Origin: Syntrophobacteraceae bacterium
Lineage (GTDB): Bacteria > Desulfobacterota > Syntrophobacteria > Syntrophobacterales > Syntrophobacteraceae
NCBI GenBank assembly: GCA_007125915.1
Contig: SLCH01000011.1
Coordinates: forward strand, 924-64,923
Direction of reading: 5' to 3'
Length of the DNA stretch: 64,000 bases
The notes beneath the pieces are model-generated. The model had not been told where the DNA came from and did no database searches. It saw only the letters and a program-made list of their open reading frames with translations. Positions 9,148-54,830 of this stretch are shown here, piece after piece (positions within the stretch are counted from its first letter, which is position 1; the number at the start of each line of letters is the position of its first letter). The position numbers and the translations under genes were made by a program.

Positions 9148-9152
9148 TCCAG

Positions 9153-22305: not shown

Positions 22306-22324
22306 GATCGATCTTTCATTTGCA

Positions 22325-22645: not shown

Positions 22646-24141
22646 ACCAAGTGATCTGGGTGGTGCTTCTTCCCTTTGTGGGCAGTGTGGTCTGCCTTTT
22701 GGCCCACAGGAAGGCTGTTTTTGCACTGGGAATGGCCGCATCTCTGGGGACTTTGATCGTCTCCGTGGGGCTGGTGGCCCACGTCTGGGAGCATGCCAGT
22801 GCCCGTGTGGAATTGGGTGGATGGGCCACGCCCCTCGGCATAGCCCTTCATCTGGATGGACTCTCGGCTCTATTTCTCCTCCTCACAGCCGTGGTTGGGG
22901 TTTTGGTGGGCATTCAGGCGGGTAGCTATTTTGCTCAGTCCCCTGAACTGCGCGCAATGGGATCCCGCTTTTGGCCTTTGTGGCTGCTCCTCTGGGGCGG
23001 CCTGAACGGGGTCTACCTGTGTTCGGATGTATTCAATGCCTATGTTTTGCTGGAGATTTCAACCCTTGCTGCAGTGGGGCTCACCATTCTATCGGGAAGC
23101 ACCGCCTCTCTGGTTGCGGGACTTCGTTATCTCCTGGCGGCCATGTTCGGCTCATTCATGTATCTCCTGGGAGTGGCTCTGATCTATGCCGGTACGGGTC
23201 AACTGGATTTTCTGCTCCTGAGCCGAGGCGTGACCCCACAAGTGCATACCCTGACCGCATTTGGCCTGATGGTGTTTGGTTTACTCATCAAGTCCGCCCT
23301 CCTGCCTTTCCACTTTTGGCTTCCACCGGCCCATTCCAGTGCACCGGCTCCGGTCAGCGCCGTTTTGTCGGCTCTCGTGGTCAAGGCCTCTTTCTTTTTG
23401 CTCCTCAAAATATGGTTCGTGGTCTTTGAATCCATTTCTGGAGGAACCCCGGGAGGAATGCCAAGTCAACTGCTTGGCATTCTGGGATCTCTGGCGGTCT
23501 TTTGGGGATCATTTCAGGCGGTGCGCCAGTCGAGACTCAAGTTGCTCATAGCCTACTCCACCGTGGGCCAGCTGGGTTACCTCTTTTTGATTTTCCCTAT
23601 TCTGGCCAGTCCTGATTTTCAAGGGCACGAGGCTCTGGCCTGGGGGGGCACCATTTTCCATCTCTTTTCTCATGGTCTTGCCAAGGCCTCACTCTTTCTC
23701 GCGGCGGGGTGTCTGCTGCAAGCCATGGGCACCGATGACCTCCATGCCATGCGCGACATTGCAGGGCGCTTGCCAGTGATCACTTTCAGCCTGGGTGTGG
23801 CTGGTGTGAGCCTGATGGGGCTGCCTCCCAGTGCAGGATTTGTGGCCAAGTGGATGCTGCTGCGTGCGGTGCTGGCCAGCGGGCAGTGGTGGTGGGCCCC
23901 GGTGATCGTCCTGGGCGGACTGCTCACAGCCGCTTATGTTTTCAAAATTCTCGCTCATACCTTTGTGCCTTCAGAGGGAGAGGCCCTTCGTCTCAACTCG
24001 GTCCCCCTGGTCATGACCCTTGTGCCCCTTGCATTGGCCATCCTTTGCGTTCTGATGGGTTTCAGAGCTGACGAGGTGATTGCGCTGCTTCCTGCTGTCC
24101 CCCATTTCGGCACGGGCAAAAACGGTTGGGAGATGCCGTGA
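22642..24141 (+). CDS. mnhD: antiporter-like large subunit 1 (MrpD/NuoN family)
   Basis: Proton_antipo_M-type pattern (FHFWLPPAHSSAPAPVSAVLSALVVK). ATGA overlap with subunit C. Confidence 0.75.
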   Translation: MNQVIWVVLLPFVGSVVCLLAHRKAVFALGMAASLGTLIVSVGLVAHVWEHASARVELGGWATPLGIALHLDGLSALFLLLTAVVGVLVGIQAGSYFAQSPELRAMGSRFWPLWLLLWGGLNGVYLCSDVFNAYVLLEISTLAAVGLTILSGSTASLVAGLRYLLAAMFGSFMYLLGVALIYAGTGQLDFLLLSRGVTPQVHTLTAFGLMVFGLLIKSALLPFHFWLPPAHSSAPAPVSAVLSALVVKASFFLLLKIWFVVFESISGGTPGGMPSQLLGILGSLAVFWGSFQAVRQSRLKLLIAYSTVGQLGYLFLIFPILASPDFQGHEALAWGGTIFHLFSHGLAKASLFLAAGCLLQAMGTDDLHAMRDIAGRLPVITFSLGVAGVSLMGLPPSAGFVAKWMLLRAVLASGQWWWAPVIVLGGLLTAAYVFKILAHTFVPSEGEALRLNSVPLVMTLVPLALAILCVLMGFRADEVIALLPAVPHFGTGKNGWEMP

Positions 24142-24143
24142 CC

Positions 24144-25658
24144 ATGACCTTTTGGCTGCCCCTCATTGTCTTGTTCAGTTCTCTGGTCACGGGACTGGTC
24201 ATCTTTATGCTTCCGGAAGAGCGTTCCAGGCTCCGCACCACCTTGAACATGTTGGGAGCTTCTGTGAAGGTTGCCGGCGTGTTTCTGATGGCCTGGGGCC
24301 TTCTGGCTCATGATGTTGTCTATGAAGTGCGGTTCACCATGGGTTTTGGTTTCGACTTTCTCCTCAAGGTGGATCTGCTTTCCCTGGCCTTCGTTTCACT
24401 CTCCAGTAACCTCTGGTTTTTGACCACCCTCTATGCCGTGGGCTACCTTGAAGGCTCTCCCAACCGAAGCCGTTTTTTTGGATTTTTCAGTCTCTGTGTG
24501 ACTGCTTCCACGGGTGTGGCTCTTGCCGGCAATCTGATCACTTTTTTTATCTTCTACGAATTTCTGACTCTTGTCACTTATCCCCTGGTGGTCCACAGGG
24601 GAACCCCCAAAGCCCTCGAAGCCGGCCGCACATACCTGTGGCATGCGGTGACGGCAGGTGCCGTGCTCTTTTTAGCCGTTGTTTGGCTGCAGGTGCTGAG
24701 CGGACCTTTCGATTTTGTTCCCGGGGGAGCGCTTCACGCGGTGGAAAACCTTTCCGGGACGGACCTGAAGGTGATCTTTGCTTTGCTGATCATCGGTCTT
24801 GGCGTCAAGTCGGCACTGGTGCCCCTCCACGGATGGCTGCCCACGGCCATGATCGCCCCGGCACCCGTCACCGCTCTGCTGCATGCAGTGGCTGTCGTCA
24901 AGGCCGGAGCTTTCGGTGTCATGCGGGTGATCTTTGATGTTTATGGCAAAGATTTCGCCGCCGACCTGGGGCTTCTCAGCCCCCTGGCCCTGGTGGTCGT
25001 GGTGACGATCCTTTTTGGCTCTGTGCGGGCTTTGATGCAAAGGGAACTGAAGCGGCGACTGGCCTATTCCACCGTGAGCCAGATCTCCTACATTGTTCTC
25101 GGAGCTGTCGTCCTGGGTCCTCTCGCCACAGTGGGAGGCCTGGTTCACCTGGTGCACCAGGGAATCATGAAAATCACCTTGTTTTTTTGTGCGGGCATTT
25201 TGTCGGAATTCCTGGGAATTTATCGCATTGACCAAATGGATGGAGTAGGACGCAAAATGCCCGTCACCATGGCTCTCTTTTCCATCGCCGCACTGGGAAT
25301 GATCGGTGTTCCCCCCGTGGCAGGCTTTGTGAGCAAGTGGCACCTGGCACAGGGAGGAATTCAGGGAGGACAGGAGTGGGTGGTGGCGGTGCTTGTGGTG
25401 AGCAGCCTTCTCAACGCCGCTTATTTCTTACCCATTTTGCATGCCTGCTGGTTCAAACCCGCGGCGATGGACTTTGAAGGCACAAACACGCAAAGGGGCA
25501 CATTTTCAAAATGGTGGGAGGCTCCCTGGACCTTGATGCTGCCCACTCTTGCAACGGCTCTTTTTTCTTTGGCTGCGGGGGTCTTTGCCGGTTGGGAATG
25601 GAGTCCTCTGGGTGTGGCTGAAAAAATAGCCAGGGGACGTGATGGAGGTCTTCCATGA
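24144..25658 (+). CDS. mnhD: antiporter-like large subunit 2 (MrpD/NuoM family)
   Basis: LHGWLPTAMIAPAPVTALLHAVAVVKAG. The start could be TTG 24126. Confidence 0.75.
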   Translation: MTFWLPLIVLFSSLVTGLVIFMLPEERSRLRTTLNMLGASVKVAGVFLMAWGLLAHDVVYEVRFTMGFGFDFLLKVDLLSLAFVSLSSNLWFLTTLYAVGYLEGSPNRSRFFGFFSLCVTASTGVALAGNLITFFIFYEFLTLVTYPLVVHRGTPKALEAGRTYLWHAVTAGAVLFLAVVWLQVLSGPFDFVPGGALHAVENLSGTDLKVIFALLIIGLGVKSALVPLHGWLPTAMIAPAPVTALLHAVAVVKAGAFGVMRVIFDVYGKDFAADLGLLSPLALVVVVTILFGSVRALMQRELKRRLAYSTVSQISYIVLGAVVLGPLATVGGLVHLVHQGIMKITLFFCAGILSEFLGIYRIDQMDGVGRKMPVTMALFSIAALGMIGVPPVAGFVSKWHLAQGGIQGGQEWVVAVLVVSSLLNAAYFLPILHACWFKPAAMDFEGTNTQRGTFSKWWEAPWTLMLPTLATALFSLAAGVFAGWEWSPLGVAEKIARGRDGGLP

Positions 25659-27394
25659 TCTGGATCCTCGCCGTTTTTTCACCTCTATTGTTGCTGCCTC
25701 CCATGGTTTTCCCTCCTTTCCGGGGGATCGTCTTTCGATACGGTTTGTGGCTCGCCCCAGCACCCGCCCTTGCTTTGGCCCTTGGAGGAAGTGATGTGGC
25801 GCCTGGTCTTTTTCCGTCTCTTTTTCTGGAAACGTCGCTCCACTTTGGTTCCTTCGGGCGGGCTTTTCTGCTGATCACCACGCTCCTCTGGATGGCAGCG
25901 GGAATGTACGCAAGCTCTTACCTTGCCACAAATCCTGCGAAGAGCCGCTTTTCCCTTTTTTTTCTGCTGACCTTATGTGGAAATTTGGGGCTCACCGTGG
26001 CCCAGGACTTGGCATCCTTTTACACGTTTTTTGCCCTCATGAGCTTTGCCGCCTACGGGTTGGTCATCCATGAGGGGACACCTCGTGCACTTCGAGCGGG
26101 CAGAGTTTATCTGACCATGACCCTTTTCGGGGAGGTCATGCTTGCCTCGGCCTTCTTCTATGGGGGACTTGCGGGAGGGGGGCTCACCTTCCAGGCAATG
26201 GCGCCCCTTCTGCCGGCACATGACCAGGGAACGCTCATCCTTGCGCTGGCTTTTGCCGGCTTTGGGATCAAGGCCGGAGTGATCGTTTTCCACCTGTGGC
26301 TCCCCCTGGCCCACCCCGCGGCACCCATTCCTGCCAGCGCTGTCCTCAGTGGAGCCATGATCAAGGCAGGGCTGCTGGGGTGGCTGCAGTTTTTCTCTGT
26401 GGACAGCGTTGCGGATTTTTGGGGAATTCTTTTTGCCTGCCTGGGTCTCTCAGGAGCCCTTTACGGAGTGGTTTCGGGTCTGCATCAGCGTGACCCCAAA
26501 ACGATTCTGGCTTATTCCAGCGTGAGTCAGATGGGTTTGATGACAATGACACTGGGCTTTGCCCTTATGTCCGGCGTTTCTGCAAGGGAAGAAATCATGA
26601 CGGGTCTCATGGTGTTTGCCCTGGTGCACGGCTTGGCCAAAGGAGCCCTCTTTCTCGGCATCGGAATATCCCTTGCCACAGAGCGCCGCTCCCTTTCGGG
26701 CAGAGTTGTCCTGGCCGGCCTGATCTTTCCTTCTTTGGTTCTGGCAGGATTGCCCTTCACAGCAGGAGCCGCGGTCAAGGGTGTCATGAAGGGGGGCGTT
26801 GCACATCTGCCCGAGGTTTGGAGTGGATTTTTTTCTGTGATGCTCTCTTTCAGTGCAATGGGCACCACCCTCCTTTTATCTGCCTTTGTGTGGCGGGTTT
26901 TTGCGGCAATGCCCCACGAAAGAGAAAAAGGCGGTGCATGGGGAATGATGGTTGCCTGGGCAGGATTGCTCGGCCTCCTGTGGGGGGTGTTTCCGATGGT
27001 GCAGGGATGGCTTCCGGTGGCTCAGATCCCTTTTGAAGGAGGCCTGCAAAGAATTTGGGAGGGGATCTGGCCCATCGGTCTGGGTGTTTTCCTGGCTTGC
27101 CTGTTTTTCAAATCATCTTTTGCCTCCAGAGAATGGAAAGGTCTCGATGGTTTTTTCCTGGAAACACTGGAACAGGCTTTACGATCTCTGGAGCGGCGAT
27201 GGCGGGCCAGCCCCCTCTGCGATCCTTCTTATGGCCGCGTTGATCTGGTGGCCTGGACGGATCGCCTCCTCCAGAACCCCATACTGCGTACGAGTCCAGA
27301 CAAAGTAGAGCAGCGATTGATGCACTGGCACACCGTCGGAGTGCTCCTTGTTTTTTTGCTTTTGGGGTTTATTCTGTTGACCTGGGCGGGATAG
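25655..27394 (+). CDS. antiporter-like large subunit 3 (MrpA N-terminal/NuoL-like)
   Basis: FHLWLPLAHPAAPIPASAVLSGAMIKAG. 579 aa. ATGA overlap with the preceding gene. Confidence 0.7.
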   Translation: MIWILAVFSPLLLLPPMVFPPFRGIVFRYGLWLAPAPALALALGGSDVAPGLFPSLFLETSLHFGSFGRAFLLITTLLWMAAGMYASSYLATNPAKSRFSLFFLLTLCGNLGLTVAQDLASFYTFFALMSFAAYGLVIHEGTPRALRAGRVYLTMTLFGEVMLASAFFYGGLAGGGLTFQAMAPLLPAHDQGTLILALAFAGFGIKAGVIVFHLWLPLAHPAAPIPASAVLSGAMIKAGLLGWLQFFSVDSVADFWGILFACLGLSGALYGVVSGLHQRDPKTILAYSSVSQMGLMTMTLGFALMSGVSAREEIMTGLMVFALVHGLAKGALFLGIGISLATERRSLSGRVVLAGLIFPSLVLAGLPFTAGAAVKGVMKGGVAHLPEVWSGFFSVMLSFSAMGTTLLLSAFVWRVFAAMPHEREKGGAWGMMVAWAGLLGLLWGVFPMVQGWLPVAQIPFEGGLQRIWEGIWPIGLGVFLACLFFKSSFASREWKGLDGFFLETLEQALRSLERRWRASPLCDPSYGRVDLVAWTDRLLQNPILRTSPDKVEQRLMHWHTVGVLLVFLLLGFILLTWAG

Positions 27395-27405
27395 CTCCCG
27401 GATCA

Positions 27406-27927
27406 GTGAGGAGTCTTGTGATCGCTGAAAAAAGAAAAACATTTTATGGATGGAAGAGCGCTTTGGCTGTAAGGATCGTATCAAGAGTACTCTTCCTGAG
27501 TCTCTTGTGGTGGATACTGACCGAGAAAGGTTTTCACCTTTCCCTTTTGGGAATTGTTGGGGTTGCATCGGGCGCAACTCTCAGTTTCTATCTGGCACCC
27601 TCACCCGTTTGGAACTGGAAAGTCCTTCCATGGCTGCGTTTCTTTCTGTTTTTTTCATGGCAGTCTTTTCTCGGCGGAATGGACGTGGCCCAGAGGGCCC
27701 TTCGAGCAGGGCCAGCGGTGCAACCCATGGTGGTCCGTTACCTTCTTGGGGTGCGAGGGGAAGAATCGAGGGTCTTTTTCCTGCTGGTGGTCAGCCTCCT
27801 TCCCGGGACTGCAGCCGTGGATCTGCGCGATGGGGTGGCGTTGATTCACGTGCTGGACAAAAGTCTCCTCCGGGAAGACCTTCTCAAAGACCTTGAGAAC
27901 AGGATCGCCCCGTTGTTTGTTCCCTGA
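27406..27927 (+). CDS. mnhE: Mrp/Mnh subunit E
   Basis: LFLSLLWWILTE... and SWQSFLGGMDVAQRAL resemble the MnhE family. GTG start is uncertain. Confidence 0.6.
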   Translation: MRSLVIAEKRKTFYGWKSALAVRIVSRVLFLSLLWWILTEKGFHLSLLGIVGVASGATLSFYLAPSPVWNWKVLPWLRFFLFFSWQSFLGGMDVAQRALRAGPAVQPMVVRYLLGVRGEESRVFFLLVVSLLPGTAAVDLRDGVALIHVLDKSLLREDLLKDLENRIAPLFVP

Positions 27928-33321: not shown

Positions 33322-33741
33322 ATGTTCAAGAGTATTCTCGTGCCGACGGATCTTACGGAAAGGAGCTTCAGGGCACTGGAGATTGCCATGAAAATTGCCA
33401 GGCATGATGAAGCGAATGTGACGCTTCTACATGTTATTGAGATGATTGAAGATGCTGATGCAGGGGATTTTCAGGATTTTTATGACAAACTGGGCCGCCG
33501 GGCTCACAAGCTGATGGATCAGGTGATATCACGGTATGAAAGGGGGTCCGATCTCATTGAAAAGCGCGTGAGTGTGGGGCGCAGAGTGAAAGACATTGTG
33601 CAGTATGCTCATGCCCATGAAATGGACCTGATCGTTCTGACCTCACACAAGATAGATGTGGCCGACAGATCTCAGGGATGGGGAACCATCAGCTACAAGG
33701 TGGGTATTCTCTCCCAATGTCCAGTGATGCTTGTGAAGTGA
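33322..33741 (+). CDS. universal stress protein
   Basis: MFKSILVPTDLTE.., DLIVLTSHK.., GTISYKVG pattern. Confidence 0.7.
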   Translation: MFKSILVPTDLTERSFRALEIAMKIARHDEANVTLLHVIEMIEDADAGDFQDFYDKLGRRAHKLMDQVISRYERGSDLIEKRVSVGRRVKDIVQYAHAHEMDLIVLTSHKIDVADRSQGWGTISYKVGILSQCPVMLVK

Positions 33742-33756
33742 ATCAGAAAGATTGCC

Positions 33757-34455
33757 ATGATACCCATTCGTGACATCAACCCCTCCAAAGGCACACCGGT
33801 GGTGAACTACACGATCATTGCCACCTGTTGTCTCATATTCATTTACGAACTCACCCTGGGTCCCGATGTGGAGAGGTTTCTTTACCGTTACGGTCTCATT
33901 CCCGCGCGTTTCTTTCAGGGGGCGGAAACTCCCGGCGTTTCTTTCCTGGAGCTTCTGACCCCTTTCTTTTCTTCCATGTTTCTTCACGGCGGATGGCTCC
34001 ACGTCATTGGGAACATGTGGATCCTGCACATTTTTGGCGACAATGTGGAGGGGGAGCTTGGCCATGGGCGATACCTTGTCTTTTATCTGCTTTGCGGTTT
34101 CATTGCGGGCATGCTGCATGTGGTGGTGCATCCGGCATCACCCATCCCGACCGTGGGGGCGAGCGGTGCCGTTGCGGGCGTGATGGGAGCCTATTTTGTC
34201 CTTTACCCGAGAGCCAAAGTGCTCACCCTGGTGCCCATTTTCTTCTTTTTCACCATGGTGGAACTGCCCGCCTATGTTTTTCTGGGAATTTGGTTTCTGC
34301 TGCAGTTTTTCAGCGGCGCCTTCACTCTCCTTGCTTCGAGGGATGAAGTGGTGGGGATTGCCTGGTGGGCGCACGTGGGAGGATTCCTGGGGGGCATCGC
34401 CCTCCTGTTTGTCATGCGCGCCACGAGGCAACGGCAGAACAATCGTTCAAAGTGA
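33757..34455 (+). CDS. rhomboid-family intramembrane serine protease
   Basis: HGGWLHVIGNM, GASGAVAGVMGAY (catalytic Ser) and AHVGGFLGG (catalytic His). Confidence 0.85.
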   Translation: MIPIRDINPSKGTPVVNYTIIATCCLIFIYELTLGPDVERFLYRYGLIPARFFQGAETPGVSFLELLTPFFSSMFLHGGWLHVIGNMWILHIFGDNVEGELGHGRYLVFYLLCGFIAGMLHVVVHPASPIPTVGASGAVAGVMGAYFVLYPRAKVLTLVPIFFFFTMVELPAYVFLGIWFLLQFFSGAFTLLASRDEVVGIAWWAHVGGFLGGIALLFVMRATRQRQNNRSK

Positions 34456-34504: not shown

Positions 34505-36922
34505 TCATTGGAGTTTTTCTTTAAGAATTTCAATGGTCTCAGAAATTTCTTTGGGGGTCACTTCCCGACGCATCTTTTCCAGCTGCTGCATGGTTTTGGA
34601 AAAACGCATTCCCTCGGCGGCGCTGATCCACTCCAACTGGAGCCGCTCCGGACGAATGCCCCACTTTTCCATCTTCTTGCGAATCTTTTCCACACGCTTC
34701 TCCGTCCAGCGGTTGGCGTCGATGTAGTGGCAATCGCCAATGTGACAACCGCTCACCAGGACGATGGGTGCGCCTTTGTTAAGTCCGTGCCAGATGAAAC
34801 TCTCGTCCACGCGGCCCGAGCACATGGTGCGTATGAGTCGAACGTTGGGGGGATACTGGAGCCTGGATACTCCGGCGTAGTCAGCCCCGGCGTAGGAGCA
34901 CCAATTGCATGCGAAGGCGAGGATCTTTTCCTGGGAATCCAGTTCCAGCATTTGGTCGATCTGGGTGACGATCTGGCCGTCGGTGAAGTGGTTCATGGAA
35001 ATGGCGTCAAAGGGGCATTCGGCGGCACAGGTGCCGCAACCCGCACATGCCGCCGTGTTCACCATGGCGGGCGTTTTTTTCTTCTTATCCACGGTGATGG
35101 CGTTGTAGGAACACACTTCCGCGCACATGCCGCAGAATTTGCAGTCCTCAGCAACGACTTCCGCAGTGATGGGTTCCGTGAGAATTTCTCCCTTGTGCAT
35201 GAGCCTTATGGCGCGGACGGCGGCGGCGGAAGCCTGGGTCACCGTCTCCTTGATGTCCTTGGGGCCTTCGGAACATCCTGCGTAAAAGACTCCCCGGGTC
35301 GCTGCATCCACGGGCAGGAGTTTGGGGTGAGCCTCAAGGTAAAATCCGTCCGAATTGAGCTGAAGGCCTAGCATTTCCTGAAGTCGCCGCGTCCCCCTGG
35401 AAGGCTGTACACCGACGGCCAGCACCAGCATGTCAAAAACGTAGAATTCCAGTTCTCCCGTGGCCGCGTTTTCAACGGCCACTTTCAGGCTTCCGTCGGG
35501 CAGCTCCTCCACATTGCCCGGCAAACCTCGAACATAATGCACTCCCAGGCGCCGGCTTCTCTTGTAGAGATCTTCAAATCCTTTCCCAAAAGCACGAATG
35601 TCAATGTAGAACACCTTGAGGTCAATGTTGGGGGCGTGCTCCTTGAGCACCAGCGTGCTCTTGATCGTGTTCATGCAGCACACGTTGGAGCAGTAGGAGT
35701 GGCCCTTGCGCGCGGACCTGGACCCCACGCACTGTATGAATCCAATGGAGGAGGGGTGCTTTCTGTCTTTGGGGCGAATGAGGTTTCCCCTGGTGGGGCC
35801 TCCCGCATTGATGAGCCTTTCAAATTCAATGCTTGTGAGCACGTTTTCAAATCGCGTGTAGCCGTACTCATCCATTTCCGTTGGATCGTAGGGCTCCATG
35901 CCCGTGGCCACAATGATGCTTCCCACTTTCTCCGTGATTTCTTTGTCTGACATGTGGAAATTGATGCACCCTTTATCGCAGGCTTCCACGCATTTGGCGC
36001 AAACCACGGGGTTGTGCCCGAGACATTCGCTGGTGTTGACCACGTATGCCGAGGGCACCGCCTGGGGAAAAGGAGAATAGATGGCCTTGCGCGAAGAGAG
36101 TCCGTGGTTGAATTCATCGGGTCGAACCACGGGACAGACGGTGGCGCAATCTCCGCATGCGGTGCACTCTTTTTCGTCCACATAACGGGCTTTCTTGATG
36201 ATTTTGACCTCGAAATTGCCAACGTAGCCCTTCACGTCGGCCACTTCGCTCATGGAGTAGAGCTTGATTCGGGGATGTCGACCGACATCCGTCATTTTCG
36301 GACCCAGTATTCAGATGGAGCAGTCCATGGTGGGAAAGGTTTTGTCAAGCTGGGCCATGATGCCTCCAATGGAGGGCTTCTTTTCCACCAGAACCACGTC
36401 GTAACCATTGTCCGCCAGGTCAAGGGATGCCTGTATGCCGGCCACTCCTCCTCCTATGACGAGAGTCCGCTTGGTGAGGGGGAGCGTTTCGGGTTCCAGG
36501 GGCTGCAGCTGTCTCACGCGGGCGATGGCCATCTGCGTCAGATCCACAGCCTTGGCCGTGGCGGCATCGGGCTCATGCATGTGCACCCAGCTGCAGTGCT
36601 CACGAAGATTGGCCATTTCCAGCAAGTATGGATTCAATCCAGCGGAAAGGAGCATCTGGCGGAAAGTGGGTTCGTGAAGCCTGGGTGAACACGATGCCAC
36701 CACGATCCGGTCGAGCTTATTTTCGGTGATGTCGTTTTTGATGCTCTCCTGGCCTGGATCGGAGCAGGCATAGGAAATGTCACGCGCCACGATCACATCG
36801 TCGTGTTTTTCCGCCAGTTGGCTCACCTGGTTGCAATTGACCGTTTTGGCGATATTGAGTCCGCAGTGGCACACGTAGACTCCAATGCGAGGTTGATGGT
36901 GCTGCATTTTTGCGCTCTCCAT
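34505..36922 (-). CDS. hdrA: HdrA-like flavoprotein with C-terminal MvhD domain; selenoprotein (in-frame UGA at 36311-36313)
   Basis: ORFs 36311..36922 and 34505..36295 are in the same frame, separated only by TGA plus five sense codons. Read-through gives KTFPTMDCSI-U-ILGPKM, the conserved HdrA DCSxC/U-ILxPK motif. GGGVAG FAD site, several CxxCxxCxxxCP clusters and a C-terminal CNWCSYAGADYAG MvhD motif are present. Confidence 0.8.
36273..36290 (-). promoter_or_regulatory. SECIS-like hairpin downstream of the hdrA UGA
   Basis: 20 nt after the UGA: GGAUGUC-GGUC-GACAUCC, a perfect 7-bp stem with a GGUC apical loop as in E. coli fdhF SECIS. Confidence 0.6.
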
Positions 36923-37057: not shown

Positions 37058-38638
37058 TCATTCCCACTTGATGGTTTTGGCCATGAGTCCCGTGAGATCC
37101 ATGATCTCCATTTCAATCTCATTCCCTCGAAAAGGGTCTTGCATGGCACATTTCAAATGGATTTGGCATTTGGGGCAGGCGGTTACAAGAAGGTCGCTCC
37201 CTGTGGCCCTGGCTTGCCGCAGCCGCTTGTTCTGAAGAGCCTTCGTGTAGCTGTCACAACCAGTCCAGGCACAATTCCCGCAACAGAGAGCAGATATGCC
37301 CCGATCCTGCATTTCCTTGATTCCCTGGGGACGCAGACGCTGCAAAAGCTTCCTGGGAAGCTCAGGCCGCCCTTCAAGCCTGCTGAGGCGGCAGGGATCC
37401 TGGAAAGTGATTCTGTGTTCCGTCTCCTCAAAATCTACGGCGCCTTTGCTGATTTCTTTTTCCAGGAGATCGTAGACATGGGTCACCTTGATGTTCAGTG
37501 GAATGCCCGCGCGGGGGTAATCGTGGGAAAGTGTGCGAAAACATTCAGGGCAGGAGGTGACGATTTCTTCAATGCCCATTTCTTGGAAAGCTTTCGCGTT
37601 GAGACGGGCGAGGCGGAGAAAGTTCTCCTCATCACCGGACCAGAGGAGGTCGTGTCCGCAGCACCTTTCTCCCGGGTGGATCGCTGGAAAAATATCGAAA
37701 AAATTCATCAGTCTGAGGCTGTCCGAAAGAATGTCGCTGGTGTTCACACCCAGATGATGGCGAAAGAAAGTGTCGAAATAAGGTGCGCAGCCCCCGAAAT
37801 AGAGGATGGGGCTTTTTTCGTCTGTTTTAATGTCTGGGGGCAGCCAGTCCCAGTGGTTGATGGTCAGATGGGGAGAAGTCATGGTTCGCATGAGGGACTG
37901 GAAAAATCCGCCGTGACTCTGTTGACCTTCAACACCGCCGCATTTGAGCATGTGGCGCATCTCACGAATGAAGTCCGGAAAATTGACCACGGAGGGACAC
38001 CGGTCTGTGCAGAGGCCGCACGTGAGGCAGGACCACACGTCTTCCACCACGGCGGGGGAGTCCAGGTCGCCCCCGATGATGGCATTGGCCATGGCTCTGG
38101 GGGAAAAGCTTTTCCCCGAGAGGGTCACAGGGCAGGCAGAAGAGCATTTGCCGCAATCCTGGCAGGCGTAAACGTCGTGTGCCGCCACAATTCGGGCCGT
38201 TTCCATGTGAGAGAGAGCGGCCACGTCCCGGGGGTTTGGTGTGACAGGACTTTTTCCAATTGTTTCAATGACATCGCTAAAATCCTGCAGGAACCGTAAC
38301 AGTGCCTCGGATTCTTCCGGGAGAAACATGGCCAGGCGCAACCGGTCCCCCCCCAATCCCAGGAGGTGGAGAATTCCCCGTGTGTCTTCCACGTTGCGCT
38401 CCGCCGACTCGGTGCCGCTGCCGTAGCGGCATGATCCTGGTTCACAGCCCACAAGGGCAACGCCGTCCGCTCCCATTTCGAACGATTTGAAGAGAAGGGA
38501 TTTGCTCATTCTTCCGGTGCAGGGAATTCGAATCATGCGGACCTCCACGGGAATGTCCGCATCGTTGTCCTGCAGCGACTGAAAAGCGGCATGAGGGCCC
38601 CAGTTGCAGATAAACAATATGATTTTTGGTTTGTCCAT
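37058..38638 (-). CDS. MvhD-HdrC-HdrB fusion protein
   Basis: N-terminal MvhD-like domain (FICNW...IPCTGR). Two CxxCxxCxxxCP ferredoxin motifs. Two CCG domains (ERCCGHD..CPEC; LCCGNC..CPKC). Confidence 0.8.
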   Translation of the reverse strand: MDKPKIILFICNWGPHAAFQSLQDNDADIPVEVRMIRIPCTGRMSKSLLFKSFEMGADGVALVGCEPGSCRYGSGTESAERNVEDTRGILHLLGLGGDRLRLAMFLPEESEALLRFLQDFSDVIETIGKSPVTPNPRDVAALSHMETARIVAAHDVYACQDCGKCSSACPVTLSGKSFSPRAMANAIIGGDLDSPAVVEDVWSCLTCGLCTDRCPSVVNFPDFIREMRHMLKCGGVEGQQSHGGFFQSLMRTMTSPHLTINHWDWLPPDIKTDEKSPILYFGGCAPYFDTFFRHHLGVNTSDILSDSLRLMNFFDIFPAIHPGERCCGHDLLWSGDEENFLRLARLNAKAFQEMGIEEIVTSCPECFRTLSHDYPRAGIPLNIKVTHVYDLLEKEISKGAVDFEETEHRITFQDPCRLSRLEGRPELPRKLLQRLRPQGIKEMQDRGISALCCGNCAWTGCDSYTKALQNKRLRQARATGSDLLVTACPKCQIHLKCAMQDPFRGNEIEMEIMDLTGLMAKTIKWE

Positions 38639-38679: not shown

Positions 38680-41600
38680 TCACATGAGAATTTCTTCCAG
38701 CATCTGCTCCAGATAGCCGTGGTCGCGATAGGGACTGTCTGCTGCGTTGGAAGGACAGACCGTGATGCAGTTGCCACAGCCCTTGCAAAGGGCTTCGTCT
38801 ATGACCGAGTACCATCCGCCTATGTCGTTGCTCTTGAAGCTGATGGCCTGGTAAGGGCAGACCCGCATGCACCTGCCGCAGCCGCGGCAAAGATTTGAAT
38901 CCACCACCACAGTGTAGCCCTTGTTCTGGCGGGGACTCCGCGGCATGACACAAGCTGCCAGAATGGCTGCAGCCTTCCCTTTGGTCCGCTCAGAAACCTT
39001 GATTCCCGGGGGGTTTGCCAGGAAGAGCCCCGGAATGGAAGTGGCTCCGGGAGCAAAAAAAGGCACTCCTGTGACACCTCGAGCCTGCATGGAGCTCTCC
39101 ACGGTGTGGGGAGGAAGCTGCTCTGTGGCCGTGTAGGGAATTTTCCGCCGGCTTTTCTCGCCGAGTATGACGGCGCCCACTTGAAACACCTGCCGGGAAC
39201 CATCGGTTTCGACGGTGACCTGGAGGTTGCCCACCGTTCCTTTGAGGCCCACCACCTTTGAACCTTTGAAACAGTGAATGTTCGGATGTTCCAAATCCTT
39301 TGAGAGGGCCTTGTGAGGTGGGCCAAACAGAAATACCTCCATGCCTGCCTCTGCAAGGGTCATGGCGCTATCGAGGGGAGCCGGGGACTCCCCGATGACC
39401 GCCGTGGTGAAATTATAGGGACGGGCCGGAGTGGGCATGGCTTTGAGGTGGCCTGCCCGGCCCACGGAACGTTCCAGCAGGCCTTGGAAGCGCTCCAGGG
39501 CCAGGGGTTGGTCTGTTTTGAGGAGGCGGAGAACTTCCCCTCTCAAATTGCACGTTTCCACCATGGCCCTGTTGATGCCTGTGCCGTTGAAAAGGGAGTG
39601 CTTGAGCCGTGTGCGCTGGTCCGAACAGGCCGTGCAGATGAAGTCAAGGGGGCAGCAGACACAGGAGCCCAGCACAAGGCGCGTGAGATTCTTTTCCCGA
39701 ATGGCGCGGAGAACGGAGGACGCTCCTGCAGGTACACAAGCCGAAGGGAGCACCTCCACATGTTCCACGAAGGGAATTCCGCCAAGGTTTTCAAGAATCT
39801 TGTTGAGTTCCTCAGGCCATCCATAAGAATCATTGCAGCGGCAGACAAATATTCCCAGACGGAGCGAATCGGAAAGCTGGGGGCCTGCGGCGGCAAAAGA
39901 GAGCCCGTGGCCCCTCATGCGCTGCGTGGTGCCTCCCAACAGAATGAGAGCTTCCGCGGCCACAGCGAATCCCCGAAGCGTCATGGCATAAACATTTTCT
40001 TGGGAGGATTTGGCGTTATAGGCTCTTAAAACGTCTTCTCCCCTGATGTTGGGAGCCAGCTCGGGGTCGGCGATGATCACCACTCCTGCATGTTCGACTT
40101 CTTCTCTCCACTGGGCGTCATGGTGTATGGTGTTCCTGGTTACGCACACCTCGCCGCACTCCAGGCATTCGGAACAAACCCCGCAATTGAGGCAGCGGGA
40201 TGCTTCCGCGAGGACCTGCTCCTCATGGAGACCCAGGGCCACCTCTCCAAACCCTTCACAGCGTACGGATGGCTGAACCTCCGGCATGTGAACCCTCGCA
40301 AGAGAAGGGGTGTGAGGAGGAATTGCAGGAAAATCCAGGTTCTCGGGTCTGCAGGTTCTCACCATTTCCGGTTCTTTGCCCGAAAGCTTCCTCACCACCG
40401 AGCGTGCCGCTTCTCTGCCTGAAGCCATGGCCCTGACCACGCTGGAGGGACCTTCCACGGCGTCCCCTGCGGCGAAGACGTCGAGCAGGGAAGTGGTGCA
40501 TTGGGTGTCCACCTGAATGAACCCACCCTCTGACGTCAGAACACAGGTGCCTTCATCGGCCTTATTGGGACTGCCCGTCTGGCCGATGGCCACGATGGCG
40601 CGATCAAAATCTTCTTCAAAAGTTTTCCCTTTCGAATCGATTCGAGGCCAGCAAATGCCATTGGCGTCGGGCTCCCCCGGCTTGGTGGCTGCGCATCTGA
40701 TTCGGTTGAGCCGGCCATCGGCGCCCAGAAAAGCCGTGACCTGAGTGGAGGTGACGAGGCGAATGCCTTCTTCAAGGGCTGCATTCACCTCCTCCCCATC
40801 CGCTGGTATGGAATCGGCGGGAAACCATGAAAGGACCGTGACCTTTGCTCCCAGGCGCAGGGCAGCACGAGCTGCATCAAAAGCCGAATTGCCGTCACCG
40901 ATGACGGCGATTTTCTCCGGCAGCCGCTCCACTTCACCCCTGTACACGGATCGCAGAAAATCAAGGCACCCGTGAACATTGGCCAGTTCTTCTCCCGGAA
41001 CTCGGAGACTGCGGTCGTGCCAGGTGCCCGTGGCCAGTATGACGGCCTTGAATTGGGCCATCAGTTCCTGAGGACCCTTTTGGGGGTCGATGGGACTTGA
41101 AGGCTTGAATTCCACCCCCAGCCTCCTGATGTTTTCGATTTCGTGGTCGAGAATCTCCCGCGGCAAACGGTAGGGACCCAGGCCGTAGCGAAGCAGGCCT
41201 CCCAGTTCTTTTTCTTTCTCAAAGACAGTCACGGGGTAGCCCTGACGAGCCAGCTCCCCAGCTGCGGCAAGTCCTGCGGGGCCCGATCCTACAACGGCGA
41301 TGTGTTCCTTTCTCCAGGGTGAGGGAGCGGGGCTTTTTTCACCACAATGCTTCATTTCGTAATCAGCGAGAAAGCGCTTGATGTCCCTGATGGCAACGGG
41401 TTCGTCCAGGTCTTTTCTTCTGCATGAAATCTCGCAGGGGTGTGTGCAGATGCGCCCGCAAATGCCCGGCAGAACGTTGTCACGCCGAATGAGTTCCAGG
41501 GCTTCTGAGTATCTTCCCGCTCGGGCAAGAGCCACGTAGCCCTGTGCGTTGACACCCAGTGGGCAAGAGGCCTGGCAAAGAGGCTGCTGTCTTTTGTCTA

Positions 41601-42036
41601 TGTGAGGTCGCCCCGGAAGTGCCTGGCGGCTGGAAAACCGAATGGGTTTGCCTCCATCAGGGGCCGTGGCGGGACACACTTCCACACAGCGCCCACAGAG
41701 GACACAAAGGTCGGGGTCCACGTGATCGGGGGGGATTTCGATATGAGCGCAAAACCCCTGTGGCGTGTGCCGCAGGGAGCGAAGGGTGCCCGGCAGGATG
41801 GTTCGAATTTTGGAATTGCGAAAAATTCTCAGCAGACCGGGCCGTAAGGCGTGGTTGGTGCGCTGACCCGATGCGAACCGGTATTCATCGCGGGCGAGCT
41901 TCACGTCGAGATCAAAGGCGGAATCGACCAGAGTGACGGGAATTCCCATTTCTCCCAATTTGTTGGTGGCGGCTATCCCCGCTGGGTTGGCCCCTATGAC
42001 CAGCACTTTCTGAAGGCGATCTTTAGGAGTTTTCAT
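38680..42036 (-). CDS. hdrL: giant HdrA-related flavoprotein with inserted GltD/NfnB-like NAD(P)H module and ferredoxin domains (HdrL-like)
   Basis: VLVIGANPAGIAA. GltD-like C..CPLGV..IRRDNVLPGICGRICTHPCE..C plus VVGSGPAGLAAAGELARQG. A further dinucleotide fold and C-terminal 2x[4Fe-4S] (CRGCGRCMRVCP, CKGCGNCITVCP). Confidence 0.7.
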   Translation of the reverse strand: MKTPKDRLQKVLVIGANPAGIAATNKLGEMGIPVTLVDSAFDLDVKLARDEYRFASGQRTNHALRPGLLRIFRNSKIRTILPGTLRSLRHTPQGFCAHIEIPPDHVDPDLCVLCGRCVEVCPATAPDGGKPIRFSSRQALPGRPHIDKRQQPLCQASCPLGVNAQGYVALARAGRYSEALELIRRDNVLPGICGRICTHPCEISCRRKDLDEPVAIRDIKRFLADYEMKHCGEKSPAPSPWRKEHIAVVGSGPAGLAAAGELARQGYPVTVFEKEKELGGLLRYGLGPYRLPREILDHEIENIRRLGVEFKPSSPIDPQKGPQELMAQFKAVILATGTWHDRSLRVPGEELANVHGCLDFLRSVYRGEVERLPEKIAVIGDGNSAFDAARAALRLGAKVTVLSWFPADSIPADGEEVNAALEEGIRLVTSTQVTAFLGADGRLNRIRCAATKPGEPDANGICWPRIDSKGKTFEEDFDRAIVAIGQTGSPNKADEGTCVLTSEGGFIQVDTQCTTSLLDVFAAGDAVEGPSSVVRAMASGREAARSVVRKLSGKEPEMVRTCRPENLDFPAIPPHTPSLARVHMPEVQPSVRCEGFGEVALGLHEEQVLAEASRCLNCGVCSECLECGEVCVTRNTIHHDAQWREEVEHAGVVIIADPELAPNIRGEDVLRAYNAKSSQENVYAMTLRGFAVAAEALILLGGTTQRMRGHGLSFAAAGPQLSDSLRLGIFVCRCNDSYGWPEELNKILENLGGIPFVEHVEVLPSACVPAGASSVLRAIREKNLTRLVLGSCVCCPLDFICTACSDQRTRLKHSLFNGTGINRAMVETCNLRGEVLRLLKTDQPLALERFQGLLERSVGRAGHLKAMPTPARPYNFTTAVIGESPAPLDSAMTLAEAGMEVFLFGPPHKALSKDLEHPNIHCFKGSKVVGLKGTVGNLQVTVETDGSRQVFQVGAVILGEKSRRKIPYTATEQLPPHTVESSMQARGVTGVPFFAPGATSIPGLFLANPPGIKVSERTKGKAAAILAACVMPRSPRQNKGYTVVVDSNLCRGCGRCMRVCPYQAISFKSNDIGGWYSVIDEALCKGCGNCITVCPSNAADSPYRDHGYLEQMLEEILM

Positions 42037-42638
42037 GACTTGGCTCCTTTCTTGCCCGCCGCCTTTTTCTCGATCCCCTTGAGAATTGCCGCGCCGTAAT
42101 CGTATCCCTTGTGAAAGGCAGTGGAATTGAGTTCTTCCGTGCCCTTGGGAACAGATTTGACCACAGTTGCGTGCAGGGCGTCCTTGGTGACCACGTCGCT
42201 CACGGCTGACAGGAAACCCAGCATGACGATGTTCGCCATCATTTTCCGGCCCAGCTCTTCGGCAATGCGTGTGGCAGGGACCCTGTAAAGGGTCCGGTCG
42301 CTTCCCTCAGAGATGCGGACCAGGTCCTGGTCCACGATGAGCATTCCGTCGGACCGGACGGAATTGGCATACTTGTCGTACCCCCCCTGAGACAGGCACA
42401 GGACGATATGGGGAATGCGCACGTAAGGGTAATGAATGGTGGACTGGGAGATGATCACCTGTGCACTGCATGCACCTCCCCTGGCTTCGGGACCGTAAGA
42501 CTGGGTGAGGGTGCTCTCCTTGCGGTCCACAAGACTTGCGGCTTTGCCGAGTATCTGGCCGGCCAAAACGATGCCTTGACCTCCAAACCCTGTGATGAGC
42601 ACTTCCTTGTGTTGGGTAGAAGCTGTTTTAGTTGCCAT
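42033..42638 (-). CDS. korC: 2-oxoacid:ferredoxin oxidoreductase gamma subunit
   Basis: ITGFGGQGIVLAGQILG motif. The stop overlaps the hdrL start (ATGA). Confidence 0.75.
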   Translation of the reverse strand: MATKTASTQHKEVLITGFGGQGIVLAGQILGKAASLVDRKESTLTQSYGPEARGGACSAQVIISQSTIHYPYVRIPHIVLCLSQGGYDKYANSVRSDGMLIVDQDLVRISEGSDRTLYRVPATRIAEELGRKMMANIVMLGFLSAVSDVVTKDALHATVVKSVPKGTEELNSTAFHKGYDYGAAILKGIEKKAAGKKGAKS

Positions 42639-42734
42639 CCTGTTGATTTCCCTCTCCGTGATGAGCAGCGAGTGGCGAGCGCAGGCAATGAAGAAAATGC
42701 GGTTTTCAGTTCACCACTTCCTGGGTGCTGCTCC

Positions 42735-43577
42735 CTACATGCAGGCCGCCGGATCCAGACGGCACGTTTTTTCGTAAATATCCGTAAAAGTGGGGCGATC
42801 CACGTTGACGAATGTGCCAAGAGTGATGCCTTTCTGATAATCGAGAATAATGTCCGCGGGGTGAGCGTCATTTTTCACGATGGATTTCTCCTGATAGAAA
42901 CGAAGAGAATCCAGGGGCCTTTCCCGGTTGCGCCGGCCGTAACCCGTCGGACAGGGCGCCAGGACTTCGATGAATGAAAACCCCCGCCGCTGCAGGGCTT
43001 CTTCTATGGACTTGGTGAGTTCCCGAGTGTGCAGAATGGTCCACCTGGCCACATAGGTGGCTCCCGAAGCGAAGGCCAGCAGAGGAAGGTTGAAGGGCGG
43101 TTCGGGATTTCCCATGGGTGTGGTGGTGGTTTTGCTCATGGAGGGAGTGGTGGCGGCCACCTGTCCCCCTGTCATGCCGTAGTTGAGGTTGTTGACGCAA
43201 ATGACCGTGATGTCCATGTTCCGCCGTGCCCCATGAATGAAATGGTTGCCGCCGATGGCGAAAAGGTCTCCATCACCGCTGAAAACGACCACGTTCAACT
43301 CGGGATTTCCCAGCTTCATTCCAGTGGCGAAGGGAATGGCGCGGCCATGTGTGGTGTGGTAGGAATCCAGATTGGTATAACCGGGCACTCGTGCTGAACA
43401 GCCGATTCCGGAAACCATGGTTGTTTTCTGAAGGTCGATGCCGCTGGATTTCATGGCGATGAGGCAGGCGGAAAATGCTGTTCCGATGCCGCAGCCGGGG
43501 CACCAGATGTGTGGAATTCTGTCCGTGCGGACCAGAGAGTCCAGTGGGTGCGTCAATTGGTTTTTTCTTTTAGTCAT
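42735..43577 (-). CDS. korB: 2-oxoacid:ferredoxin oxidoreductase beta (TPP-binding) subunit
   Basis: WCPGCGIG.., GDGD.FAIGGNH TPP motif. Confidence 0.8.
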   Translation of the reverse strand: MTKRKNQLTHPLDSLVRTDRIPHIWCPGCGIGTAFSACLIAMKSSGIDLQKTTMVSGIGCSARVPGYTNLDSYHTTHGRAIPFATGMKLGNPELNVVVFSGDGDLFAIGGNHFIHGARRNMDITVICVNNLNYGMTGGQVAATTPSMSKTTTTPMGNPEPPFNLPLLAFASGATYVARWTILHTRELTKSIEEALQRRGFSFIEVLAPCPTGYGRRNRERPLDSLRFYQEKSIVKNDAHPADIILDYQKGITLGTFVNVDRPTFTDIYEKTCRLDPAACM

Positions 43578-43614
43578 GAATGAGGTCCCCACAATCTTTA
43601 GATTGAATCGCTTT

Positions 43615-44763
43615 TCATTTGCTGATGGCTTCCAGGGATTCCAGGATGCGGTCCGGAGAGATCACCGTCCCTCCCGCGTGGCCAACCAAAAAGGCGGGGC
43701 ATTGGCCCCGGGAACAGCGCTCCACTTCCAGGTGAATCTGACCCAGGTTGATTTCCACCGTGACCAGTGCTTTCATCCTTTTGGCCAGTGAGGCGATGAG
43801 CTCTTCTGGAAAGGGCCACACGGTGATCAGTCGCAGAAGGCCGGCCTTGATTCCCTTTTCCCTGGCTTCATCCACTGCGGCAAGGCTGCTTCGCGCAGAG
43901 ACACCGTAGGAGATGAGAGCGATCTCCGCATCATCGAGACGGTAGCTTTCCGTCTCGATGATGCGGTGAAGATTGTTGCGAATCTTGCCGACGATACGCG
44001 CCACCAGTTTTTCATGAGCATCGGGGGACATGACGGGATATCCGCGTTCGTCGTGGGTGAGGCCCGTCACGTGGATGCCGTACCCCTCTCCGGCGGCGGC
44101 CATGGGGGGAATTCCGTCGGGACCCGGCTGAAAGGGTTTGAAACGATCCTTGCGGCCTTTGGGCAGTTTGCGCGTCTGAAGCTTGATGGCAGCGGCCTCG
44201 GGTATGACCACCTTCTCGCTCAGGTGTCCGGTCACCTCGTCTGCCATGATGAGGACCGGCAGGCGAAAGATTTCACTGAGATTGAAAGCGGTGATGGTCT
44301 GATAGAACATTTCCTGGGGTGAAGAGGGTGCCAGGGCAATGATCTCATAATGACCATGCGAGCCCCAGCGGGCCTGCATCATGTCTCCCTGCGCGGGCAT
44401 GGTGGGCAGCCCTGTGGAAGGGCCGGCCCGTTGCACATTCACTAAAACACAGGGGGTTTCCGTGTAAATGCCGAGCCCGAGATTTTCCATCATCAGGCTG
44501 AACCCGGGCCCTGAAGTGGCTGTCATGCTCTTTGCTCCGGCGCAGGAAGCTCCCAGCACTGAGGCCATGGCGGCTATTTCATCCTCCATTTGTATGAAGG
44601 TGCCCCCCACTTCGGGCAGGTGCAGAGCCATGTGCTCCGCGATTTCCGTGGCCGGAGTGATGGGGTAGGCGCCAAAAAAGCGGCACCCGGCTGCCAGTGC
44701 GCCCTCGGCACACGCTTCGTCCCCCGTCAAGAAATGCTCACCCGTCAAAACTTCTGGTCTCAT
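43615..44763 (-). CDS. korA: 2-oxoacid:ferredoxin oxidoreductase alpha subunit
   Basis: GAYPITPATEIAEHMA..FIQMEDEIAAMA pattern (Kor/Oor-like). Substrate is not determinable by eye. Confidence 0.75.
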   Translation of the reverse strand: MRPEVLTGEHFLTGDEACAEGALAAGCRFFGAYPITPATEIAEHMALHLPEVGGTFIQMEDEIAAMASVLGASCAGAKSMTATSGPGFSLMMENLGLGIYTETPCVLVNVQRAGPSTGLPTMPAQGDMMQARWGSHGHYEIIALAPSSPQEMFYQTITAFNLSEIFRLPVLIMADEVTGHLSEKVVIPEAAAIKLQTRKLPKGRKDRFKPFQPGPDGIPPMAAAGEGYGIHVTGLTHDERGYPVMSPDAHEKLVARIVGKIRNNLHRIIETESYRLDDAEIALISYGVSARSSLAAVDEAREKGIKAGLLRLITVWPFPEELIASLAKRMKALVTVEINLGQIHLEVERCSRGQCPAFLVGHAGGTVISPDRILESLEAISK

Positions 44764-44974
44764 AGACTCTCTTTCCTTCACCCAAGTGGTTGTTTTCCCA
44801 CTGAGAAGGTTTCAAAATGCCATGAATGATTTTCGGAGGGCATATTTTCAAAGGGGTATTCTTACCAAGTCCCCCTTGGCCGTGTGAGAGATGGCTGCCC
44901 TCAATGGATCACTCTCTAATTCACCGGTTAGAAAAAATCGGCCGCTCTCCACCAATGGCCCTGCAGAGGAGGGG

Positions 44975-45244
44975 TCATGAGGATGCGGTTTGCGCCTCCA
45001 CGGAATAAATGGCCAAATCAGGGCATATGGTCTCGCAGTAATGGCAGTTCACACATGCCCCTTCCTTCTTGATCCGGGGAGGGTGATAGCCTCTGGCATT
45101 GAAGTGGGGAGACTCTTCAAGGACATCACGGGGACAGTAGACGATGCAGAAACCGCAGCCTTTGCATCGATCTTCGATGATATGAACGACTCCCTGTGTG
45201 ACTTCAACTTCTGTTGCATCCAGTGGAACACGCCAAAACTTCAT
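44975..45244 (-). CDS. korD: 2-oxoacid:ferredoxin oxidoreductase delta subunit (2x[4Fe-4S] ferredoxin)
   Basis: CKGCGFCIVYCP and CVNCHYCETICP. Start trimmed to MKFWRV. Confidence 0.7.
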   Translation of the reverse strand: MKFWRVPLDATEVEVTQGVVHIIEDRCKGCGFCIVYCPRDVLEESPHFNARGYHPPRIKKEGACVNCHYCETICPDLAIYSVEAQTASS

Positions 45245-45780
45245 GTTCACCCATCCTCGTTCAAATAATTCGATCATCCATTCCAAATGCCTGGGAACGG
45301 CACGAAAGGTCAAAGGTCAAGGGGCCGTATTAGAAGCATGCAGGGTATTCAGGGCTTTGATATGGGCTGAAAACGCCAGTTTGAAGGCCTCCATCTCAAC
45401 CCGCCCTTAAAAACAAAGGGGGTGTTAACCGCGAGAAGGCTCTCTTGACCTGAACTTTCCTCTATATCACGAAAATATGGACTTAAGTCAAGGTGTTTCT
45501 GGATCATGTGCGGGGTTAAATGGTTAAAGGGGTGCCATTTTTGAGGGGGTATTCGGCCTTTTTGAGTTTTTGGCCGAGAGTGGCGGTAATCTTGCTCACA
45601 CATGTCCCTTCCATGGAACATGAAGCGTCATTCTAGATGAGAAGGGCACTCCGCGATCGTGGAGGGAGGGCGGAGGATGTGAAGCCGCCAGTTCCTGTGG
45701 CGGGCCGTTGGAGAAGGTTTCGGTGGCCTTCCCTTTTGAGAAGAATTGATTAGCGGATCCTGGGCAGGGTCATGATGGCC

Positions 45781-54793: not shown

Positions 54794-54815
54794 AGGATCT
54801 GCACCTCCGTTCGGT

Positions 54816-54830
54816 TGGGTGATTTCTTGC
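54816..54830 (+). promoter_or_regulatory. candidate sigma-54 promoter
   Basis: TGGGTG-N5-TTGC with GG-N10-GC spacing, 27 nt upstream of ATG 54857. Confidence 0.35.

Follow-up and report, generated by a model that had tools for sequence, protein, structure and literature searches.

Two open reading frames (ORFs) on the minus strand of a 64,000-nucleotide stretch of Syntrophobacteraceae DNA (contig SLCH01000011.1; hereafter the window) raise the question of whether the TGA between them ends one gene or is read as selenocysteine (Sec) within a single hdrA gene. ORFs 36311..36922 and 34505..36295 share one frame. Between the TGA at 36313-36311 and ATG 36295, the start used by the ORF finder, lie five sense codons. 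The minus strand here reads ...ACC ATG GAC TGC TCC ATC TGA ATA CTG GGT CCG AAA ATG ACG GAT GTC GGT CGA CAT CCC..., and the coordinates and sequences that a first-pass annotation had given for the TGA and for a hairpin behind it were all correct when this strand was read again. The same annotation had joined the two ORFs into one gene. We consider it very highly probable that they form a single HdrA2-type gene with a Sec codon at the TGA. The gene is a further case of a selenoprotein family, a residue position and a recoding mechanism that have already been described, its lineage is one in which Sec-HdrA genes are known to be numerous, and a near-identical sequence is already public, where it is annotated wrongly as two genes.

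The reading frame across the UGA

The gene (34505..36922, minus strand) has 805 codons, including Sec204 at the in-frame UGA (36311..36313), and ends with the TGA at 34507-34505. Residues 10-659 of the read-through product matched residues 3-650 of HdrA from Methanothermococcus thermolithotrophicus (5ODC_A, E = 4e-235) in an alignment that was unbroken at the UGA, and E values against archaeal HdrA structures ranged from 4e-235 to 8e-221 over ~650 residues. Residue 204 fell on Cys197 of the 5ODC_A motif D-C-S-I-C-I-L-A-P-K and on Sec197 of Methanococcus maripaludis HdrA, which agrees with the earlier placement of the UGA at the second Cys of DCSxC. Its partner in the CxxU motif (D-C-S-I-U), Cys201, is encoded at 36320..36322 (minus strand). 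The M. maripaludis HdrAu (Sec197; PDB 8RVU/9SW2 series) and the M. thermolithotrophicus HdrA (5ODC, with Cys) share the fold and the cofactor-binding motifs of the window protein. These two proteins carry Sec and Cys, respectively, at the identical site, D-C-S-x-[U/C]-I-L-x-P-K, with the CxxU pair lying beside the flavin adenine dinucleotide (FAD).

The first-pass name HdrA was correct as far as it went, but the protein is more exactly an HdrA–MvhD fusion of the HdrA2 type, not a plain HdrA. Its C-terminal MvhD/FlpD domain (residues ~664-795; 34538..34933, minus strand) matched PF02662 (E = 4e-46) and aligned with the MvhD chains 5ODC_D and 8RVU_F. The NCBIfam model for HdrA2, defined as the HdrA–MvhD fusion (NF040770), matched the read-through protein with 1205.7 bits against a cutoff of 1100, covering model positions 1-775 of 777. 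Together with the structure alignment, this end-to-end match bore out the joining of the two ORFs. Membership in the HdrA family was also seen in the CxxU motif and in the association with HdrB/HdrC (CCG) and MvhD genes. When the two pieces were taken separately, the Pfam matches of the N-terminal piece reached no further than position ~38 of the FAD-binding folds, in keeping with the truncated FAD domain that had been proposed, and the C-terminal piece showed iron-sulfur (Fe-S) and FlpD/MvhD domains.

HdrA is a catalogued selenoprotein family with the motif CxxU (PMC9312934). Sixteen bacterial Sec-HdrA members, seven of them in Syntrophobacter fumaroxidans, were reported in 2006 by Zhang et al. 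(PMC1794560), and Desulfobacterium autotrophicum has Sec in hdrA1, hdrA2, hdrL1 and hdrL3 along with a full selABCD set (PMC2702500). The first-pass statement that Sec/Cys variation at this HdrA site is known is borne out by the records for M. maripaludis, S. fumaroxidans and D. autotrophicum.

To compare the codon at the UGA position across species, we scanned one genome per species and aligned 80 full-length relatives, out of more than 600 matching loci. All 80 loci were of Desulfobacterota type (Syntrophobacteraceae, Desulfobacterales, Desulfobulbaceae, Desulfatiglandales, and others), and the closest among them, with 94% identity, came from a Syntrophobacteraceae metagenome-assembled genome (MAG). 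The protein was conserved on both sides of the UGA in every locus (80/80), with amino-acid identities of 64-94%. The codon at the UGA position was TGA in 76 relatives, TGT in three and TGC in one, while TAA and TAG were never found. The homologues thus have Sec or, in 4 of the 80 loci, Cys where the window has the UGA, as the alignment to Cys197/Sec197 had indicated. Including the window there were 77 Sec sequences, 75 of which were distinct and were used in the pair counts below, and Cys201 was Cys in all 77.

The exact locus was found in three independent assemblies (Logan SRR490128, NCBI GCA_003561905.1, and Logan SRR7083934), which had the TGA in common although their copies of the gene departed from the window at five other positions. 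Public gene calls at this locus (L083 11717-14134, L084 11717-14134, and L085 6591-9008) split hdrA into products of 203 aa and 582 aa, in line with the first-pass remark that the ORF track breaks the gene in two. The second of these calls begins at Met224, so that residues 204-223 are missing from both fragments.

The hairpin downstream of the UGA

A hairpin, GGAUGUC-GGUC-GACAUCC, lies at 36273..36290 on the minus strand (stem 36284-36290, loop 36280-36283, stem 36273-36279), where it overlies the codons for T-D-V-G-R-H-P. It starts 20 nt after the UGA, and both the perfect 7-bp stem and the GGUC loop described at first pass were confirmed in the sequence. Published criteria for a bacterial Sec insertion sequence (SECIS) element, as set out in the bSECIS model (PMC13188914), are an apical loop of 3-9 nt whose first two positions contain a G (as a rule G[G/U]), an upper stem of 4-16 bp, a UGA-to-loop distance of 16-37 nt and a minimum free energy of -7.5 kcal/mol or lower. 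With its 4-nt GGUC loop, 7-bp stem, UGA-to-loop distance of 27 nt and energy of -9.4 kcal/mol, the hairpin falls within all of these limits.

The hairpin is more than a chance feature. Perfect hairpins with a 7-bp stem and a 4-nt loop occurred ten times per strand in the 64-kb window, and only this one had a GGTC loop. The 16-nt core, GATGYCGGTCGRCATC, was present once in the window and in none of 100 shuffled sequences. The same motif was found exactly once per Sec locus, except in L044, where a single GAT-to-GAC change has altered the stem, and at no other place in ~1 Mb of fetched DNA.

In all 77 Sec sequences the hairpin had the form [G]GAUG[U/C]C-GGUC-G[A/G]CAUC[C], lay equally far from the UGA and kept an invariant GGUC loop. 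Paired cells made up 98.3% of the stem alignment, compared with 24-58% when the 3' arm was slid by 1-3 nt. The variable pair (29:36) was C-G in 35 of the distinct sequences, U-A in 31 and U-G in 9, and the mismatch C·A was not seen; neither the observed pairing nor the covariation score was reached by any of 500 shuffles. The U-to-C change in this stem replaces Val with Ala (GUC to GCC) and is accompanied by a synonymous CGA-to-CGG change on the opposite arm. The outermost pair was broken in 8 of the 75 distinct sequences, and the conserved core is therefore 6 bp.

The constraint on the hairpin was also seen at synonymous sites. Third-position entropy was 0-0.1 bit in codons +8, +9, +10 and +12 (GAT, GTC/GCC, GGT, and CAT), and codon +11, the covarying stem partner, was either CGA or CGG, while flanking residues that were equally invariant had third-position entropies of 0.8-1.9 bit. 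Because synonymous sites are frozen across the hairpin and free in its flanks, protein conservation does not explain it. The peptide D-V-G-R-H-P is also encoded by two of the Cys forms, through different synonymous codons (GTG GGA CGA/CGT CAT/CAC). Residues have changed in the remaining two, and the GGUC loop was lost in all four.

The likeness to the SECIS element of Escherichia coli fdhF, which had been suggested from the loop, held in part. Both elements lie inside the ORF directly after the UGA, and both have an identical GGUC loop on a short G+C-rich upper stem. The fdhF element (NC_000913.3: UGA, 11 nt, then GGUUGCA-GGUC-UGCACC, with the fold (((.(((....))))))), however, has a bulged U and a spacer that is 9 nt shorter, whereas the hairpin here has a perfect 7-bp stem after a 20-nt spacer and no conserved extended lower stem. 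With these differences, the hairpin would work like the fdhF SECIS but as a different subtype. In archaea, the SECIS element is located in the 3' untranslated region and has a different structure (PMC13188914), while that of the window gene lies in the coding sequence just after the UGA.

Selenocysteine and the competing readings of the UGA

In the mechanism that we propose, SelB, aided by the hairpin, would bring Sec to UGA 36313-36311 in place of termination. The predicted product, a flavo-iron-sulfur protein of HdrA–MvhD type, has 805 residues, and its Cys201-x-x-Sec204 pair would lie beside the FAD. By homology, this pair may form an electron relay between the bifurcating FAD and an Fe-S cluster. 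In the cryo-EM structure of the M. maripaludis Hdr-Vhu-Fwd complex (2026), density for Sec197 was seen bonded to a cysteine between cluster A3 and the FAD, and a thiol-selenol electron relay was proposed (PMC13518236). In the HdrA-like BamE of class II benzoyl-CoA reductase, the equivalent pair, Cys59-Cys62, forms a disulfide with the bifurcating FAD on one side and a low-potential cluster on the other, and it too has been proposed to relay electrons (bioRxiv 10.64898/2026.04.10.717634). For the window gene, the sequence data show a single gene, a UGA aligned with Cys or Sec, a conserved and covarying hairpin and a conserved operon; SelB binding, the actual insertion of selenium and the part played by the complex are inferred.

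Several results weigh against this reading. The 60-nt stretch as a whole was as stable in its fold as shuffled sequence (z = 0.10), and the support for the hairpin thus comes from comparative data, not from thermodynamics. Rfam returned no relevant family for 36180-36380, either at the gathering threshold or at E <= 10, where only noise was seen. The covariation concerns one pair only, among sequences that are phylogenetically related. The evidence for Sec insertion at the UGA is at the level of sequence, and none of selA, selB, selD and tRNA-Sec was found in the 64-kb window. The host organism would nevertheless be expected to decode Sec, judging from the conserved UGA and SECIS, from Sec use in cultured relatives and from selB in a related locus, L068.

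The alternative that survives best is that the TGA is a true stop, and that translation starts anew at ATG 36295 or at residue 224, the C-terminal piece then joining the 203-aa N-terminal protein non-covalently. An ATG does lie five codons past the TGA, the public calls treat the 203-aa and 582-aa pieces as genes of their own, and the hdrA genes of D. autotrophicum have been described as encoded by two or three genes (PMC2702500). However, the candidate start at 36295 is an internal residue, the conserved Met of C-I-L-x-P-K-M, which is also found in archaeal Cys-type HdrA (CILAPKM), and the bases before it have freely varying third positions and no conserved Shine-Dalgarno sequence. A true stop would be expected to drift among TGA, TAA and TAG, but TGA was found in 77 of 77 sequences and the only alternatives were Cys codons. 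Termination would also break the FAD-binding fold after ~38 positions, and it does not account for a hairpin that is kept at synonymous sites in the TGA forms only. We regard a true stop as very unlikely.

Downstream structure can in general stimulate read-through of UGA. The ribosome might accordingly pass the UGA with a near-cognate Cys or Trp tRNA, or with a reassigned code, the hairpin only slowing it, and the lack of sel genes in the window leaves room for such a reading. Reassignment is excluded by the use of UGA as an ordinary stop for many genes of the window, hdrA itself and its upstream neighbour among them, which makes the recoding site-specific. The UGA also occupies exactly the position of Sec in characterised HdrA, GGUC is the SelB-binding loop of fdhF, and Sec use with a complete machinery is documented for relatives from the Syntrophobacteraceae and Desulfobacteraceae. 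In L068, from a Syntrophobacteraceae MAG, selB adjoins a paralog of the gene: within 2734-10257, a Cys-type HdrA-MvhD protein is encoded between a molybdopterin oxidoreductase (NuoG/FdhA-like, 902 aa) and selB (TIGR00475, 254.8 bits against a cutoff of 242.25, with model positions 3-345 of 581 matched). The gene for the Sec elongation factor thus has a Sec-to-Cys copy as its neighbour. Read-through without Sec appears extremely improbable in view of these points.

An error of sequencing or assembly, or a recent inactivating mutation that left a pseudogene, would need one base change from TGT or TGC in what is probably a metagenome assembly, but the same TGA recurs in three independent assemblies, whose copies of the gene are otherwise distinct from that of the window at five positions, and in 76 other species with strong amino-acid conservation downstream, which makes this explanation negligible.

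Insertion of Sec at a UGA, the reading that we prefer, is proposed for this one site in the window. When further in-frame TGAs flanked on each side by 60 or more open codons were sought, the candidates on coding strands were adjacent same-frame genes or shadow ORFs opposite real genes, and no second selenoprotein gene was found among them. The pairs 4051-4740 / 4756-6285 and 52262-54793 / 54815-56200, considered as Sec genes, proved to be adjacent independent genes that share a frame. A tblastn search for in-frame stops in the neighbouring Hdr subunits of the relatives gave isolated stops at single loci, none of which recurred as an extra Sec site.

A second candidate for recoding came from Rfam, in which 5794-5893 (plus strand), inside ORF 4756-6285, matched PYLIS_3, the pyrrolysine insertion sequence of mttB, with 54.3 bits against a cutoff of 38. 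The UAG of the model aligned with an ATG (Met347), and the 509-aa MttB-family ORF has no in-frame TAG. With the UAG replaced by ATG, the protein is a non-pyrrolysine MttB homologue, and the match reflects coding-sequence homology. This ORF belongs to a methyl-transfer cluster on the plus strand (4051-9029 and 13567-14739). The cluster comprises MttB-family genes at 4756-6285, 7812-9029 and 13567-14739, a corrinoid protein at 7135-7815, a pterin-binding methyltransferase at 6272-7096 and a protein with a B12 methionine-synthase activation-like domain at 4051-4740. Its content suggests that a quaternary amine or a substrate of methylamine type is demethylated, with tetrahydrofolate as the methyl acceptor.

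The hdrA operon and a probable loss of selenocysteine outside it

On the same strand, hdrA is preceded by a 526-aa MvhD–HdrC–HdrB fusion (37058..38638; Pfam FlpD, Fer4 and two CCG domains), an HdrL-type protein of 1118 aa (38680..42036) and a four-subunit 2-oxoacid:ferredoxin oxidoreductase (OFOR; 42033..45244; Pfam POR_N, TPP_enzyme_C and POR). The OFOR subunits are delta (44975-45244 by the L083 gene calls, within ORF 44975..45313), alpha (43615-44763; NCBIfam NF006412, 568 bits against a cutoff of 411), beta (42735-43592) and gamma (42033-42638), the last two of which are syntenic in the relatives. The HdrL-type protein was assigned from Pfam, NCBIfam PRK12771, BLASTP against HdrA, and synteny. 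It consists of an NfnB/GltD-like NAD(P)H-FAD module, weak HdrA-like segments and terminal ferredoxin domains, and the comparison with HdrA by BLASTP revealed no CxxC/U motif in it. Its partial match to NCBIfam NF045663, 'diclust_near_Sec', a model described as pyridine nucleotide-disulfide oxidoreductase/dicluster-binding protein, reached 177.7 bits where the cutoff is 530, and the MvhD-HdrCB protein also matched this model weakly.

The order OFORβ-γ-HdrL-MvhD/HdrCB-HdrA was kept in nearly all Sec loci with a long enough flank. Downstream of hdrA, the minus-strand ORF 33643-34131 (162 aa) had no family match and overlaps two genes on the plus strand, one for a rhomboid protease (33757-34455) and the other for a Usp-family protein (33322-33741). 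It is probably spurious, which makes hdrA the last gene of the operon. Because the operon joins HdrA2 to an OFOR, an NAD(P)H-binding HdrL and MvhD-HdrCB, its product is most likely a flavin-based electron bifurcating or confurcating complex, and since the host is a bacterium the substrate of the Hdr part is likely to be a disulfide other than CoM-S-S-CoB. At ~6 kb from the Hdr cluster and on the opposite strand lies a gene set like those of Mrp/Mbh-type multisubunit cation/proton antiporters (21316-27927, plus strand). It encodes an MbhD/MnhB fusion, three subunits of the Proton_antipo_M type and MnhE, and its neighbourhood revealed neither a hydrogenase nor another catalytic module.

The archaeal HdrA proteins compared above work with Vhu hydrogenase and Fwd, whereas the window HdrA is fused to MvhD and has OFOR, HdrL and HdrCB as its partners. 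The same HdrA–MvhD fusion architecture is found in HdrA2 of Methanosarcina acetivorans, where HdrA2B2C2 is a characterised ferredoxin- and F420H2-dependent bifurcating heterodisulfide reductase (PMC5296606). Sec is not mentioned in the paper on that enzyme (PMC5296606). In the window, unlike in M. acetivorans, HdrB and HdrC are fused together and to a second MvhD domain, and the electron donors and acceptors probably differ as well. By its combination of OFOR, HdrL and HdrA genes, the operon corresponds to the 'HdrAL/POR' cluster Sfum_0012-0018 of S. fumaroxidans, a bacterium of the same family-level lineage, Syntrophobacteraceae, whose genome was not among the 80 compared loci. The products of Sfum_0012-0018 were not detected in S. 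fumaroxidans proteomes (PMC5947623). BamE and BamF of Geobacter metallireducens likewise form an HdrA-type bifurcating module with an MvhD-like adaptor, a CxxC by the FAD and Sec in the module, but there the Sec is in the MvhD-like BamF (Sec19), and here it is in the HdrA part. A class II benzoyl-CoA reductase (BamDEF) context was considered for the operon and rejected: genes for the tungsten protein BamB and the NuoEFG-like BamGHI are not in the cluster.

The four Cys loci lacked the OFOR–Hdr synteny and lay in unrelated contexts. In a rough neighbour-joining tree without support values, the Cys forms appeared as two pairs nested among the Sec forms. This placement points to Sec having been replaced by Cys on two or more occasions, in copies no longer in the cluster, and fits with the partly decayed hairpins of L077 and L079. 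Both forms were found in one genome, the Desulfatiglandales MAG CAXXPR01. Its in-cluster form (L050) has the TGA and full synteny, and its out-of-cluster paralog (L053) has TGT and adjoins genes for an M32 carboxypeptidase, an AAA ATPase and a tRNA-editing domain protein. The pair resembles the Sec/Cys isoenzyme pairs of Methanococcus.

With Sec in all 76 in-cluster orthologues and Cys only outside, Sec appears to be obligatory in the OFOR–HdrL–Hdr cluster. Tentatively, OFOR(δαβγ)–HdrL–MvhD/HdrCB–HdrA2 may be an uncharacterised enzyme that couples the oxidation or synthesis of a 2-oxoacid to NAD(P)H and a disulfide acceptor, and in which selenium in the CxxU motif is functionally required. The suggested need for selenium follows from the orthologues in the cluster (76 species), which are all Sec forms, and from the Cys copies, which have left the cluster and whose SECIS has decayed. 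We consider this proposal possible, though the less likely outcome.

Correct annotation of the locus restores a full-length HdrA2 and marks this Syntrophobacteraceae-like organism as a Sec user, while in split calls, including that of GCA_003561905.1, the enzyme is mis-annotated and selenium use is missed. The 16-nt motif offers a simple diagnostic for the Sec-HdrA2 orthologue group. The 77 Sec forms, with the hairpin laid on the codons for D-V/A-G-R-H-P, and the four Cys forms, in which it has decayed, provide a clear example of how a coding-region SECIS constrains synonymous sites. The general understanding of Sec recoding and of Hdr enzymes is unchanged by this case. If selenium is indeed required in the cluster, the operon would offer a bacterial system in which to test the contribution of Sec197 to HdrA-type bifurcation.

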